Shown: positions 1-5,500 of the stretch, piece by piece | How positions within the stretch are numbered: position 1 is the stretch's first letter | Layout: each line of letters starts with the position of its first letter | Sequence record: NC_003287.2 | Source: Inovirus M13 | Direction: 5' to 3' (one strand) | DNA length: 6,407 nucleotides | Made by a program: the position numbers and the translations under genes | The notes under the pieces: generated by a model | Database searches by the model: none | Seen by the model: the letters and a program-made list of their open reading frames with translations, nothing else | Told to the model about the DNA's origin: nothing

Positions 1-831
1 AACGCTACTACTATTAGTAGAATTGATGCCACCTTTTCAGCTCGCGCCCCAAATGAAAATATAGCTAAACAGGTTATTGACCATTTGCGAAATGTATCTA
101 ATGGTCAAACTAAATCTACTCGTTCGCAGAATTGGGAATCAACTGTTACATGGAATGAAACTTCCAGACACCGTACTTTAGTTGCATATTTAAAACATGT
201 TGAGCTACAGCACCAGATTCAGCAATTAAGCTCTAAGCCATCCGCAAAAATGACCTCTTATCAAAAGGAGCAATTAAAGGTACTCTCTAATCCTGACCTG
301 TTGGAGTTTGCTTCCGGTCTGGTTCGCTTTGAAGCTCGAATTAAAACGCGATATTTGAAGTCTTTCGGGCTTCCTCTTAATCTTTTTGATGCAATCCGCT
401 TTGCTTCTGACTATAATAGTCAGGGTAAAGACCTGATTTTTGATTTATGGTCATTCTCGTTTTCTGAACTGTTTAAAGCATTTGAGGGGGATTCAATGAA
501 TATTTATGACGATTCCGCAGTATTGGACGCTATCCAGTCTAAACATTTTACTATTACCCCCTCTGGCAAAACTTCTTTTGCAAAAGCCTCTCGCTATTTT
601 GGTTTTTATCGTCGTCTGGTAAACGAGGGTTATGATAGTGTTGCTCTTACTATGCCTCGTAATTCCTTTTGGCGTTATGTATCTGCATTAGTTGAATGTG
701 GTATTCCTAAATCTCAACTGATGAATCTTTCTACCTGTAATAATGTTGTTCCGTTAGTTCGTTTTATTAACGTAGATTTTTCTTCCCAACGTCCTGACTG
801 GTATAATGAGCCAGTTCTTAAAATCGCATAA
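1..831 (+). CDS. gII: Gene II, C-terminal part (pII, rolling-circle replication initiator; full protein 410 aa when circularised)
   Basis: Frame 1 is open from base 1 to TAA ending at 831 (NATTISRIDATFSARAPNENIAKQVIDHLRNVSNG...PVLKIA). The ORF-track call 85..831 uses a TTG alternative start and is a truncation artefact. Confidence 0.95.
   Translation, partial: NATTISRIDATFSARAPNENIAKQVIDHLRNVSNGQTKSTRSQNWESTVTWNETSRHRTLVAYLKHVELQHQIQQLSSKPSAKMTSYQKEQLKVLSNPDLLEFASGLVRFEARIKTRYLKSFGLPLNLFDAIRFASDYNSQGKDLIFDLWSFSFSELFKAFEGDSMNIYDDSAVLDAIQSKHFTITPSGKTSFAKASRYFGFYRRLVNEGYDSVALTMPRNSFWRYVSALVECGIPKSQLMNLSTCNNVVPLVRFINVDFSSQRPDWYNEPVLKIA
412..417 (+). promoter_or_regulatory. Candidate -10 hexamer (TATAAT) of the gene X promoter inside gene II
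   Basis: Perfect TATAAT at 412..417, about 80 nt upstream of the gene X start; possible -35 TTGATG at 387..392 with a long 19-nt spacer. The position fits an internal promoter known in Ff phages, but the exact hexamers are inferred. Confidence 0.35.
496..831 (+). CDS. gX: Gene X (pX, 111 aa), translated in frame from an internal start of gene II; needed for ssDNA accumulation
   Basis: Internal ATG at 496 in the gene II frame, preceded by a strong Shine-Dalgarno GAGGGGG at 484..490; product MNIYDDSAVLDAIQSK... is identical to the pII C-terminus. Known nested gene in Ff phages. Confidence 0.85.
   Translation: MNIYDDSAVLDAIQSKHFTITPSGKTSFAKASRYFGFYRRLVNEGYDSVALTMPRNSFWRYVSALVECGIPKSQLMNLSTCNNVVPLVRFINVDFSSQRPDWYNEPVLKIA
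802..807 (+). promoter_or_regulatory. Candidate -10 hexamer (TATAAT) of a gene V promoter at the 3' end of gene II
   Basis: Perfect TATAAT at 802..807, about 36 nt upstream of the gene V ATG; no clear -35 seen. Inferred. Confidence 0.3.
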
Positions 832-842
832 GGTAATTCACA

Positions 843-1106
843 ATGATTAAAGTTGAAATTAAACCATCTCAAGCCCAATTTACTACTCGTTCTGGTGTTT
901 CTCGTCAGGGCAAGCCTTATTCACTGAATGAGCAGCTTTGTTACGTTGATTTGGGTAATGAATATCCGGTTCTTGTCAAGATTACTCTTGATGAAGGTCA
1001 GCCAGCCTATGCGCCTGGTCTGTACACCGTTCATCTGTCCTCTTTCAAAGTTGGTCAGTTCGGTTCCCTTATGATTGACCGTCTGCGCCTCGTTCCGGCT
1101 AAGTAA
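843..1106 (+). CDS. gV: Gene V (pV, 87 aa), ssDNA-binding protein that coats progeny plus strands and represses gene II translation
   Basis: ORF 843..1106 gives MIKVEIKPSQAQFTTRSGVSRQGKPYSLNEQLCYVDLGNEYPVLVKITLDEGQPAYAPGLYTVHLSSFKVGQFGSLMIDRLRLVPAK, recognised as Ff gene 5 protein; SD AAGG at 830..833. Confidence 0.97.
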   Translation: MIKVEIKPSQAQFTTRSGVSRQGKPYSLNEQLCYVDLGNEYPVLVKITLDEGQPAYAPGLYTVHLSSFKVGQFGSLMIDRLRLVPAK

Positions 1107-1107
1107 C

Positions 1108-1209
1108 ATGGAGCAGGTCGCGGATTTCGACACAATTTATCAGGCGATGATACAAATCTCCGTTGTACTTTGTTTCGCGCTTGGTATAATCGCTGGGGGT
1201 CAAAGATGA
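1108..1209 (+). CDS. gVII: Gene VII (pVII, 33 aa), minor coat protein at the virion tip that emerges first
   Basis: ATG at 1108, one nt after the gene V stop, gives MEQVADFDTIYQAMIQISVVLCFALGIIAGGQR with TGA at 1207..1209. Too short for the ORF track. Canonical position between V and IX. Confidence 0.85.
   Translation: MEQVADFDTIYQAMIQISVVLCFALGIIAGGQR
1163..1190 (+). promoter_or_regulatory. Strong sigma70-type promoter upstream of genes IX/VIII (-35 TTGTAC, 16-nt spacer, -10 TATAAT)
   Basis: TTGTAC at 1163..1168 and perfect TATAAT at 1185..1190, inside gene VII and about 110 nt upstream of gene VIII. Consistent with the known strong promoter driving major coat protein expression. Confidence 0.6.
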
Positions 1210-1304
1210 GTGTTTTAGTGTATTCTTTCGCCTCTTTCGTTTTAGGTTGGTGCCTTCGTAGTGGCATTACGTATTTTACCCGTTTAATGGAAACTTCCTC
1301 ATGA
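1206..1304 (+). CDS. gIX: Gene IX (pIX, 32 aa), minor coat protein at the pVII end of the virion
   Basis: ATG at 1206 overlaps the gene VII stop (ATGA); product MSVLVYSFASFVLGWCLRSGITYFTRLMETSS, stop TGA at 1302..1304 overlapping the gene VIII ATG. Too short for the ORF track. Confidence 0.85.
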   Translation: MSVLVYSFASFVLGWCLRSGITYFTRLMETSS

Positions 1305-1522
1305 AAAAGTCTTTAGTCCTCAAAGCCTCTGTAGCCGTTGCTACCCTCGTTCCGATGCTGTCTTTCGCTGCTGAGGGTGACGATCCCGCAAAAGCGGCCT
1401 TTAACTCCCTGCAAGCCTCAGCGACCGAATATATCGGTTATGCGTGGGCGATGGTTGTTGTCATTGTCGGCGCAACTATCGGTATCAAGCTGTTTAAGAA
1501 ATTCACCTCGAAAGCAAGCTGA
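1301..1522 (+). CDS. gVIII: Gene VIII (pVIII major coat protein precursor, 73 aa: 23-aa signal peptide + 50-aa mature protein)
   Basis: MKKSLVLKASVAVATLVPMLSFA / AEGDDPAKAAFNSLQASATEYIGYAWAMVVVIVGATIGIKLFKKFTSKAS: signal peptide, acidic N-terminus, hydrophobic helix and basic C-terminus are the classic major coat protein. Asn at mature position 12 (AAC 1403..1405). Confidence 0.97.
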   Translation: MKKSLVLKASVAVATLVPMLSFAAEGDDPAKAAFNSLQASATEYIGYAWAMVVVIVGATIGIKLFKKFTSKAS

Positions 1523-1537
1523 TAAACCGATACAATT

Positions 1538-1565
1538 AAAGGCTCCTTTTGGAGCCTTTTTTTTT
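1538..1565 (+). terminator. Rho-independent terminator after gene VIII
   Basis: GC stem GGCTCC (1541..1546) / GGAGCC (1551..1556) with a TTTT loop, followed by a run of 9 T (1557..1565); located directly after the gene VIII stop. Confidence 0.85.
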
Positions 1566-1578
1566 GGAGATTTTCAAC

Positions 1579-3195: not shown

Positions 3196-4242
3196 ATGGC
3201 TGTTTATTTTGTAACTGGCAAATTAGGCTCTGGAAAGACGCTCGTTAGCGTTGGTAAGATTCAGGATAAAATTGTAGCTGGGTGCAAAATAGCAACTAAT
3301 CTTGATTTAAGGCTTCAAAACCTCCCGCAAGTCGGGAGGTTCGCTAAAACGCCTCGCGTTCTTAGAATACCGGATAAGCCTTCTATATCTGATTTGCTTG
3401 CTATTGGGCGCGGTAATGATTCCTACGATGAAAATAAAAACGGCTTGCTTGTTCTCGATGAGTGCGGTACTTGGTTTAATACCCGTTCTTGGAATGATAA
3501 GGAAAGACAGCCGATTATTGATTGGTTTCTACATGCTCGTAAATTAGGATGGGATATTATTTTTCTTGTTCAGGACTTATCTATTGTTGATAAACAGGCG
3601 CGTTCTGCATTAGCTGAACATGTTGTTTATTGTCGTCGTCTGGACAGAATTACTTTACCTTTTGTCGGTACTTTATATTCTCTTATTACTGGCTCGAAAA
3701 TGCCTCTGCCTAAATTACATGTTGGCGTTGTTAAATATGGCGATTCTCAATTAAGCCCTACTGTTGAGCGTTGGCTTTATACTGGTAAGAATTTGTATAA
3801 CGCATATGATACTAAACAGGCTTTTTCTAGTAATTATGATTCCGGTGTTTATTCTTATTTAACGCCTTATTTATCACACGGTCGGTATTTCAAACCATTA
3901 AATTTAGGTCAGAAGATGAAATTAACTAAAATATATTTGAAAAAGTTTTCTCGCGTTCTTTGTCTTGCGATTGGATTTGCATCAGCATTTACATATAGTT
4001 ATATAACCCAACCTAAGCCGGAGGTTAAAAAGGTAGTCTCTCAGACCTATGATTTTGATAAATTCACTATTGACTCTTCTCAGCGTCTTAATCTAAGCTA
4101 TCGCTATGTTTTCAAGGATTCTAAGGGAAAATTAATTAATAGCGACGATTTACAGAAGCAAGGTTATTCACTCACATATATTGATTTATGTACTGTTTCC
4201 ATTAAAAAAGGTAATTCAAATGAAATTGTTAAATGTAATTAA
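3196..4242 (+). CDS. gI: Gene I (pI, 348 aa), inner-membrane assembly/export ATPase with N-terminal Walker A motif
   Basis: ATG at 3196 immediately after the gene VI stop (TAA 3192..3194); product MAVYFVTGKLGSGKTLVSVGKIQDK... with Walker A GKLGSGKT (about nt 3217..3240) and a membrane-spanning segment near LCLAIGFASAF. The ORF-track start at 3148 is a TTG extension overlapping gene VI. Confidence 0.93.
   Translation: MAVYFVTGKLGSGKTLVSVGKIQDKIVAGCKIATNLDLRLQNLPQVGRFAKTPRVLRIPDKPSISDLLAIGRGNDSYDENKNGLLVLDECGTWFNTRSWNDKERQPIIDWFLHARKLGWDIIFLVQDLSIVDKQARSALAEHVVYCRRLDRITLPFVGTLYSLITGSKMPLPKLHVGVVKYGDSQLSPTVERWLYTGKNLYNAYDTKQAFSSNYDSGVYSYLTPYLSHGRYFKPLNLGQKMKLTKIYLKKFSRVLCLAIGFASAFTYSYITQPKPEVKKVVSQTYDFDKFTIDSSQRLNLSYRYVFKDSKGKLINSDDLQKQGYSLTYIDLCTVSIKKGNSNEIVKCN
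3916..4242 (+). CDS. gXI: Gene XI (pXI, 108 aa), in-frame internal restart within gene I (from pI Met241); assembly protein partner of pI
   Basis: ATG at 3916 in the gene I frame (720 nt = 240 codons after the gene I start); product MKLTKIYLKKFSRVLCLAIGFASAF... Known nested gene in Ff phages; the internal initiation cannot be proven from sequence alone. Confidence 0.75.
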   Translation: MKLTKIYLKKFSRVLCLAIGFASAFTYSYITQPKPEVKKVVSQTYDFDKFTIDSSQRLNLSYRYVFKDSKGKLINSDDLQKQGYSLTYIDLCTVSIKKGNSNEIVKCN

Positions 4243-5500
4243 TTTTGTTTTCTTGATGTTTGTTTCATCATCTTCTTTTGCTCAGGTAATTGAAATGAAT
4301 AATTCGCCTCTGCGCGATTTTGTAACTTGGTATTCAAAGCAATCAGGCGAATCCGTTATTGTTTCTCCCGATGTAAAAGGTACTGTTACTGTATATTCAT
4401 CTGACGTTAAACCTGAAAATCTACGCAATTTCTTTATTTCTGTTTTACGTGCTAATAATTTTGATATGGTTGGTTCAATTCCTTCCATAATTCAGAAGTA
4501 TAATCCAAACAATCAGGATTATATTGATGAATTGCCATCATCTGATAATCAGGAATATGATGATAATTCCGCTCCTTCTGGTGGTTTCTTTGTTCCGCAA
4601 AATGATAATGTTACTCAAACTTTTAAAATTAATAACGTTCGGGCAAAGGATTTAATACGAGTTGTCGAATTGTTTGTAAAGTCTAATACTTCTAAATCCT
4701 CAAATGTATTATCTATTGACGGCTCTAATCTATTAGTTGTTAGTGCACCTAAAGATATTTTAGATAACCTTCCTCAATTCCTTTCTACTGTTGATTTGCC
4801 AACTGACCAGATATTGATTGAGGGTTTGATATTTGAGGTTCAGCAAGGTGATGCTTTAGATTTTTCATTTGCTGCTGGCTCTCAGCGTGGCACTGTTGCA
4901 GGCGGTGTTAATACTGACCGCCTCACCTCTGTTTTATCTTCTGCTGGTGGTTCGTTCGGTATTTTTAATGGCGATGTTTTAGGGCTATCAGTTCGCGCAT
5001 TAAAGACTAATAGCCATTCAAAAATATTGTCTGTGCCACGTATTCTTACGCTTTCAGGTCAGAAGGGTTCTATCTCTGTTGGCCAGAATGTCCCTTTTAT
5101 TACTGGTCGTGTGACTGGTGAATCTGCCAATGTAAATAATCCATTTCAGACGATTGAGCGTCAAAATGTAGGTATTTCCATGAGCGTTTTTCCTGTTGCA
5201 ATGGCTGGCGGTAATATTGTTCTGGATATTACCAGCAAGGCCGATAGTTTGAGTTCTTCTACTCAGGCAAGTGATGTTATTACTAATCAAAGAAGTATTG
5301 CTACAACGGTTAATTTGCGTGATGGACAGACTCTTTTACTCGGTGGCCTCACTGATTATAAAAACACTTCTCAAGATTCTGGCGTACCGTTCCTGTCTAA
5401 AATCCCTTTAATCGGCCTCCTGTTTAGCTCCCGCTCTGATTCCAACGAGGAAAGCACGTTATACGTGCTCGTCAAAGCAACCATAGTACGCGCCCTGTAG
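4220..5500 (+). CDS. gIV: Gene IV (pIV, 426 aa precursor with about 21-aa signal peptide), outer-membrane secretin channel for phage extrusion
   Basis: ATG at 4220 with SD AAGG at 4208..4211; product MKLLNVINFVFLMFVSSSSFA/QVIEMNNSPLRDFVTWYSKQSG...; C-terminal half (…VPFITGR…GQTLLLGGL…VPFLSKIPLIGLLF…) looks like the secretin domain shared with GspD/PilQ. Overlaps the gene I end by 23 nt. The ORF-track start at 4181 is a TTG extension. Confidence 0.95.
   Translation: MKLLNVINFVFLMFVSSSSFAQVIEMNNSPLRDFVTWYSKQSGESVIVSPDVKGTVTVYSSDVKPENLRNFFISVLRANNFDMVGSIPSIIQKYNPNNQDYIDELPSSDNQEYDDNSAPSGGFFVPQNDNVTQTFKINNVRAKDLIRVVELFVKSNTSKSSNVLSIDGSNLLVVSAPKDILDNLPQFLSTVDLPTDQILIEGLIFEVQQGDALDFSFAAGSQRGTVAGGVNTDRLTSVLSSAGGSFGIFNGDVLGLSVRALKTNSHSKILSVPRILTLSGQKGSISVGQNVPFITGRVTGESANVNNPFQTIERQNVGISMSVFPVAMAGGNIVLDITSKADSLSSSTQASDVITNQRSIATTVNLRDGQTLLLGGLTDYKNTSQDSGVPFLSKIPLIGLLFSSRSDSNEESTLYVLVKATIVRAL

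Follow-up and report, generated by a model that had tools for sequence, protein, structure and literature searches.

Positions 1108-1304 of the window, by which we mean the whole 6407-nucleotide (nt) stretch of Inovirus M13 DNA analyzed here, almost certainly represent the long-known M13 genes VII and IX, encoding proteins of the virion tip. Both genes of M13, f1, and fd are already known: their sequences and annotation are available, their genetics has been studied, and atomic structures show their products. The window constitutes a complete M13 genome. It aligned end to end with the record JX412914 (M13 isolate WT variety Rutgers) at 99.8% identity, and the f1 records were approximately 99% identical to it. 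Compared base by base, the window differed from JX412914 at 15 positions and from the f1 record V00606 at 61. None of the 15 differences fell into the segment 843-1522, which was 100% identical in the window and JX412914, and between 1050 and 1349 the window, the M13 Rutgers record, and two f1 records agreed base for base. Gene VII is directly preceded by gene V and followed by gene IX, and gene IX is followed by gene VIII for the major coat protein. The two genes and then their neighbors are as follows:

1108..1209, + strand: gene VII (pVII, 33 amino acids); evidence from translation, PDB, Pfam, PHROG, and annotation.
1206..1304, + strand: gene IX (pIX, 32 amino acids); evidence from translation, PDB, PHROG, and annotation.
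843..1106, + strand: gene V (single-stranded DNA-binding protein, 87 amino acids); an open reading frame (ORF) matching Pfam PF02303 with E = 1.3e-42 and annotated as V in four records.
1301..1522, + strand: gene VIII (major coat protein precursor, 73 amino acids); Pfam PF19199 with E = 1.2e-27, annotated in the records.

The gene VII frame extends from the ATG at 1108-1110 to the TGA at 1207-1209 and contains 33 sense codons and no internal stop; its product of 33 residues reads MEQVADFDTIYQAMIQISVVLCFALGIIAGGQR. The gene IX frame (ATG at 1206-1208, TGA at 1302-1304) comprises 32 sense codons, likewise with no internal stop, and is translated into the 32 residues MSVLVYSFASFVLGWCLRSGITYFTRLMETSS. 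All 33 residues of pVII were identical to the Tail virion protein G7P (chain 8b3p_AAA) and all 32 residues of pIX to the Tail virion protein G9P (chain 8b3p_FFF), and the same identities were found in the structures 8ixl and 8jww. The Pfam family PF19978 (Inovirus_G7P_2) was matched by pVII with 76.4 bits (cutoff 27; E = 1.3e-21), residues 1-33 lying on profile positions 1-33 of 33. The PHROG 'minor coat protein' families gave E = 4.6e-20 for pVII (phrog_7781) and E = 3e-26 for pIX (phrog_10143, profile positions 1-32 of 32). No NCBIfam model matched pVII. PHROG 10143 was the sole family by which pIX was recognized, and in the M13 Rutgers record JX412914 this protein is called a 'hypothetical protein'. 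Genes VII and IX are placed at 1108..1209 and 1206..1304 in JX412914, V00606, J02448, and J02451 (M13, two f1, and fd). The preliminary description of this DNA, which had assigned the two frames to genes VII and IX and proposed their translation as a check, was thus correct: both frames are free of internal stops, both products are identical to G7P and G9P, and the four records agree.

The overall hydropathy of the products (grand average of hydropathy, GRAVY) was 0.87 for pVII and 0.78 for pIX, and each protein has one strongly hydrophobic stretch. In pVII the most hydrophobic window of 15 residues, MIQISVVLCFALGII, reached 2.55, and the C-terminus (...GGQR) ends with a basic residue. These features fit a protein of about 33 residues with a single hydrophobic helix and a basic C-terminus, in agreement with the description in PMC4823517. 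Together with the identity to chains of virion-tip structures, the GRAVY values uphold the earlier view of the products as small, hydrophobic virion-tip proteins.

The location of the two proteins in the virion and their role in assembly are taken from the literature. pVII and pIX are small membrane proteins without signal sequences (PMC4823517, PMC10175506), present in five copies each at the end of the virion that emerges first (PMC10175506; passages of PMC10480500). Cryo-electron microscopy of f1-derived nanorods and of an M13 mini-phage showed five pVII helices forming a central bundle, around which five pIX helices alternate with pVIII; the positively charged C-termini of pVII and pIX are directed to the DNA (PMC10175506; passages of PMC10480500). 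Assembly starts with the interaction of pVII and pIX with the packaging-signal hairpin (PMC4823517, PMC10175506).

Natural variation was analyzed in ten other Ff sequences over the segment 1050-1349. Within genes VII and IX variants were present at five positions, and all five were synonymous third-position changes. Silent changes make up 21% of those possible, giving P of approximately 4e-4 for five out of five; selection at the protein level therefore acts on VII and IX. A search with pV by tblastn returned, besides IKe and the PEar phages of Erwinia, inoviruses that are more distant. The pV proteins of IKe and PEar6 are about 45% identical to that of M13, and both phages keep the order V-VII-IX-VIII with products of 30-33 amino acids in the VII and IX positions. 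BLASTP of M13 against IKe pVII returned one local match of 10 residues (E = 0.034). In the more distant inoviruses Dulem virus 57, D_HF5_61, and toucan80, the VII/IX slot is occupied by one or two longer ORFs. The identity and coordinates of the two genes, the selection on their products, and the synteny are direct results of this analysis, as are the strengths of the Shine-Dalgarno sequences and the quality of the promoter-like sequence presented below.

The junctions of the block and the elements on the messenger RNA (mRNA) that may bear on its translation are listed here:

1104..1110, + strand: V/VII junction TAAcATG (TAA at 1104-1106, C at 1107, ATG at 1108; spacing +1).
1206..1209, + strand: VII/IX junction ATGA, start of IX and stop of VII (spacing -4).
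1301..1304, + strand: IX/VIII junction ATGA, start of VIII and stop of IX (spacing -4).
1195..1200, + strand: Shine-Dalgarno-like GGGGGT of gene IX, with a duplex of -9.1 kcal/mol to the anti-Shine-Dalgarno sequence.
1138..1186, + strand: predicted RNA hairpin in gene VII, present in both the minimum free energy (MFE) and the centroid folds and ending 19 nt before the gene IX AUG.

A chain of stop/start overlaps had been described for this region. Two of the links are indeed overlaps, the ATGA motifs at 1206-1209 and 1301-1304, but the V/VII junction is a +1 adjacency. The sole find of an inverted-repeat search was an imperfect palindrome at 1293-1310 (ACTTCCTCATGA / TCATGAAAAAGT, 83% complementary), centered on the ATGA of the IX stop and VIII start.

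The strength of each Shine-Dalgarno sequence was expressed as the best duplex of the 16S ribosomal RNA 3' end with positions -20 to -3 of each phage gene. Gene VII had the weakest sequence among the 11 genes (-1.7 kcal/mol), no better than 61% of the + strand ATG/GTG codons. The value for gene IX was the second strongest of the 11 and belonged to the top 4% of these codons. Gene VIII was weak on the duplex measure (-3.3 kcal/mol); it probably has a strong independent initiation site.

The preliminary description interpreted the junctions as translational coupling. Such coupling was reported for VII-to-IX in f1 at the -4 spacing (2025 review, PMC12548453). When the f1 VII stop codon was moved 62 nt upstream the coupling was kept, and when it was moved 89 nt upstream the translation of IX was abolished (PMC12548453). 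Blumer et al. 1987, as reviewed there, predicted a long hairpin whose end lies just upstream of IX, and for VII-to-IX the review gives RNA unfolding, a model with a hairpin upstream, preference over simple reinitiation. V-to-VII coupling is described in the same review for the IKe pair; for f1 it is announced by the title of Ivey-Hoyle & Steege 1989, cited in that review. The weak Shine-Dalgarno sequence of gene VII fits its documented dependence on gene V translation. The literature search returned nothing on IX-to-VIII coupling. The interpretation finds support in published work for V-to-VII and VII-to-IX, and for the third junction it is undocumented in the literature found.

The predicted hairpin at 1138-1186 agrees with this prediction and is a candidate for the hairpin of Blumer et al. 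that would make IX depend on the translation of VII. When 1090-1330 was folded, the MFE structure paired the GGGGG (1195-1199) of the gene IX Shine-Dalgarno sequence with approximately 1231-1236 (GCCUCU; the position was counted from the fold string). The same fold contained a further hairpin, located in gene IX at 1248-1269 (TGGTGCC...GGCATTA), which is terminator-like with a poor T tract. No part of the window attained the gathering score of any Rfam family.

The second subject of interest was a promoter-like sequence embedded in gene VII. Its elements, and the terminator that follows the block, are:

1182..1190, + strand: extended -10 element TGGTATAAT, inside gene VII, with a perfect TATAAT at 1185-1190.
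1163..1168, + strand: candidate -35 element TTGTAC, with 3/6 matches to TTGACA and a 16-nt spacer, from the position weight matrix (PWM) scan.
1538..1566, + strand: intrinsic terminator after gene VIII, a stem of 9 base pairs and then a T run; the top terminator-like match.

The 9-mer TGGTATAAT has two copies in the genome, at 1182-1190 and 799-807 and each on the + strand, against 0.30 copies expected; 9 of 200 shuffles reached this number. The second copy, at 799-807, is situated 36 nt ahead of the gene V ATG. A further TATAAT, at 412-417, is located upstream of the gene X start at 496. In the PWM scan with a bonus for an extended -10, the site at 1185 ranked 6th of 12,822 positions on both strands; the PWM weights came from remembered base frequencies and this rank is supportive only. 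The extended -10 element was invariant in 10 Ff sequences, among which the overall diversity is low.

From the spacing after the -10 element we infer a transcription start near 1197, at one of the G residues 1196-1198 (approximately 0.187 of the way along the genome); the promoter strength is likewise deduced. This start would fall within the GGGGGT at 1195-1200, about 9 nt before the gene IX ATG. Lying ahead of that ATG, it would let the promoter serve IX as well as VIII. The RNA running from the 1185 promoter to the terminator would be about 370 nt long and would carry IX and VIII, not VII. The presumed start agrees with a classical G-start promoter at about 0.18 map units and with the promoter of the fd coat gene, reportedly described by Takanami et al. 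in 1976. Another promoter-like site, TCGAAA-17-TACAAT at 1508-1536, had 9/12 matches in the consensus scan and PWM rank 5. It is placed at the end of gene VIII, with the terminator hairpin (1538-1559) following directly and gene III further downstream, and looks like a gene III promoter just ahead of the terminator.

Several results count against the picture of the locus drawn so far. No Pfam-A or NCBIfam model matched pIX, and BLASTP gave no alignment between M13 and IKe pIX, the equivalence of which is suggested by position and composition (IKe pIX likewise had no Pfam match). TATAAT alone was not enriched in the window (6 occurrences vs. 7.2 expected). The consensus promoter scan, with its rule of at least 4/6 -35 matches, omitted the 1185 site because the -35 matches just 3/6. 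In the literature search no source was found for the start site, position, or strength of a promoter preceding gene VIII. Folding of 1090-1330 and of 1130-1215 gave structures no stabler than those of shuffled sequences (z = 0.17 and -0.23, respectively), and the strong Shine-Dalgarno sequence of gene IX implies that coupling may not be its sole route of translation. The strong gene VIII promoter proposed earlier at TATAAT 1185..1190 inside gene VII was retained as to its position and its extended -10; neither the word 'strong' nor the link to gene VIII found confirmation in the literature searched. Nothing contradicts the identities of the genes; the weak points concern expression only.

Other readings of the two frames were weighed against genes VII and IX. 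The ORF list used a default threshold of at least 60 amino acids, and each ORF was started from whichever of ATG, GTG, or TTG came first behind a stop codon. Both genes were missing from this list, which reproduced the earlier remark that an ORF track with a length threshold does not show them. The region abounds in short open frames (its 1 kilobase contains 17 ORFs of 20 amino acids or more), and ATGA junctions with at least 30 open codons on both sides were only mildly enriched: the window has three vs. 0.8 expected, and that number was reached in 14 of 300 shuffles. Open frames by themselves thus carry little weight, and the two might be regarded as chance frames and no genes at all. The proof comes from the identity to structure chains, the synonymous substitutions, and the gene order kept in IKe and PEar6. 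Chance leaves no room for full-length identity to chains in three solved virion structures, for family matches at E = 1e-20 to 1e-26, for five synonymous substitutions out of five, or for an arrangement kept in another genus, and the probability of this reading is negligible; the chain identity in PDB and the synonymous substitutions refute it. The third ATGA junction, at 2443, is inside gene III and out of frame, and probably arose by chance in the repetitive, glycine-rich linker region.

When the threshold was lowered to 20 amino acids, VII and IX appeared only as frames of 44 amino acids, 1075..1209 and 1170..1304, starting at TTG codons inside gene V (1075) and inside gene VII (1170). It is very improbable that these longer forms are the true products, as the PDB chains have exactly 33 and 32 residues and start at the Met encoded by the ATG, ATG 1108 and ATG 1206 are used in all four annotated records, and PF19978 (33 positions) and phrog_10143 (32 positions) were matched end to end. 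The ORF finder over-extended genes III, I, and IV as well (III to TTG 1549 vs. the annotated 1579, I to TTG 3148 vs. 3196, and IV to TTG 4181 vs. 4220). Equally little speaks for the notion that the coding features are the two antisense ORFs of 70 amino acids, 921..1133 and 1055..1267 on the - strand, which overlie genes V, VII, and IX. Both clear the 60-amino-acid threshold, but neither matched PHROG, three of the four natural substitutions in 1055..1267(-) were non-synonymous while all were silent in the + strand frames, and the Ff records all annotate genes on the + strand only; this possibility can practically be dismissed and the antisense ORFs regarded as spurious.

A more serious alternative concerns the expression of gene IX. 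Gene IX may owe its translation mainly to initiation at its own GGGGGU, independent of VII, also on the short transcript from the 1185 promoter, with ATGA reflecting compaction more than regulation. The second-strongest anti-Shine-Dalgarno match of the 11 genes (-9.1 kcal/mol) would suit such a role. As most of gene VII would be missing from the short transcript, no ribosomes would arrive from VII, and the predicted hairpin at 1138-1186, which leaves the Shine-Dalgarno sequence uncovered, would be absent from it. On the other hand, the abolition of IX translation when the VII stop was moved 89 nt upstream argues for coupling on long mRNAs (PMC12548453). A start at G 1196-1198 would also leave a cut-short Shine-Dalgarno sequence at the RNA 5' end, which should weaken initiation. 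On balance we consider mainly independent initiation unlikely, though with a real share of probability, and prefer coupling of IX to VII. A mixed reading, to which we give a low probability, has gene IX on two kinds of mRNA, coupled to VII on the long one and close to a truncated, nearly leaderless 5' end on the short, abundant IX-VIII transcript. If this were true, pIX would stay scarce relative to pVIII although one mRNA carries both, and the VII:IX ratio would be fixed in this way. This question may well have been settled already in the f1 literature of the 1980s.

The ORF list and the records offered further observations outside the two genes. Gene II spans the ends of the window (6006 to 831) and was listed merely as a truncated frame, 85..831, and gene X (496..831) had no separate entry. 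Gene XI, which we place at 3916..4242 in frame within gene I, had neither an entry in the ORF list nor an annotation in the fetched records. The start of gene III is ATG in the window (A at 1579), whereas JX412914 and V00606 have G and hence a GTG start, and the V00606 record annotates a 'valine start' for gene III. Six other differences from JX412914 were grouped at 4453-4489 in gene IV.

Altogether, these data suggest the following scheme for the V-VII-IX-VIII block. Most transcripts of VII and IX would come from promoters further upstream. On them gene VII, which seems to have no usable Shine-Dalgarno sequence, would depend entirely on ribosomes that have just completed gene V, one base upstream. 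Gene IX starts within the ATGA that closes VII, carries a GGGGGU Shine-Dalgarno sequence of its own, and is reportedly coupled to VII, and gene VIII starts within the ATGA closing gene IX. The probable sigma-70 promoter with the extended -10 in VII most likely launches the IX and VIII transcript of about 370 nt that would end at 1538-1566 and raise the abundance of coat-protein mRNA. In the scheme pVII and pIX are each a single hydrophobic helix located in the inner membrane, and five copies of each then form the rounded cap at the filament end emerging first, with the positively charged C-termini facing the DNA packaging signal to start the assembly.

As a textbook example, the locus combines in little space translational coupling and a promoter located within a coding sequence, and it also calls for caution with length thresholds and mechanical choice of start codons in ORF tracks. 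The 60-amino-acid cutoff drops two essential structural genes of a virus with 10-11 genes and keeps two meaningless antisense ORFs. Having no Pfam or NCBIfam model, pIX can be left 'hypothetical' by profile-based annotation, and one M13 record labels it so.

Genes VII and IX of the Ff phages f1, fd, and M13 are the same as those of the window in protein sequences, coordinates, junctions, and neighboring genes. The likeness to IKe and PEar6 (Lineavirus) comprises the V-VII-IX-VIII order, the hydrophobic nature of the 30-33-residue products, and the -4 ATGA overlap of VII and IX. Moreover, IKe pVII also matches PF19978, and in the IKe record a putative TATAA box is marked within gene VII. The two groups differ at the outer junctions. 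V and VII overlap by -4 in IKe and PEar6 and are spaced by +1 in M13, and IX and VIII, which overlap in the ATGA in M13, are set apart in the two Lineavirus phages by 10-11 nt that include a clear Shine-Dalgarno sequence, AAGGAAAA. Judged by these junctions, the chaining of V, VII, and IX is conserved across genera, and the ATGA between IX and VIII is particular to the Ff phages. The arrangement also resembles the coupling of the trpB-trpA type with its ATGA or TAANATG motifs: stop and start lie within a few bases, the start of gene VII has no Shine-Dalgarno sequence, and in PMC12548453 coupling is exemplified by these phage gene pairs. M13 gene IX differs from that type in having a strong Shine-Dalgarno sequence of its own.

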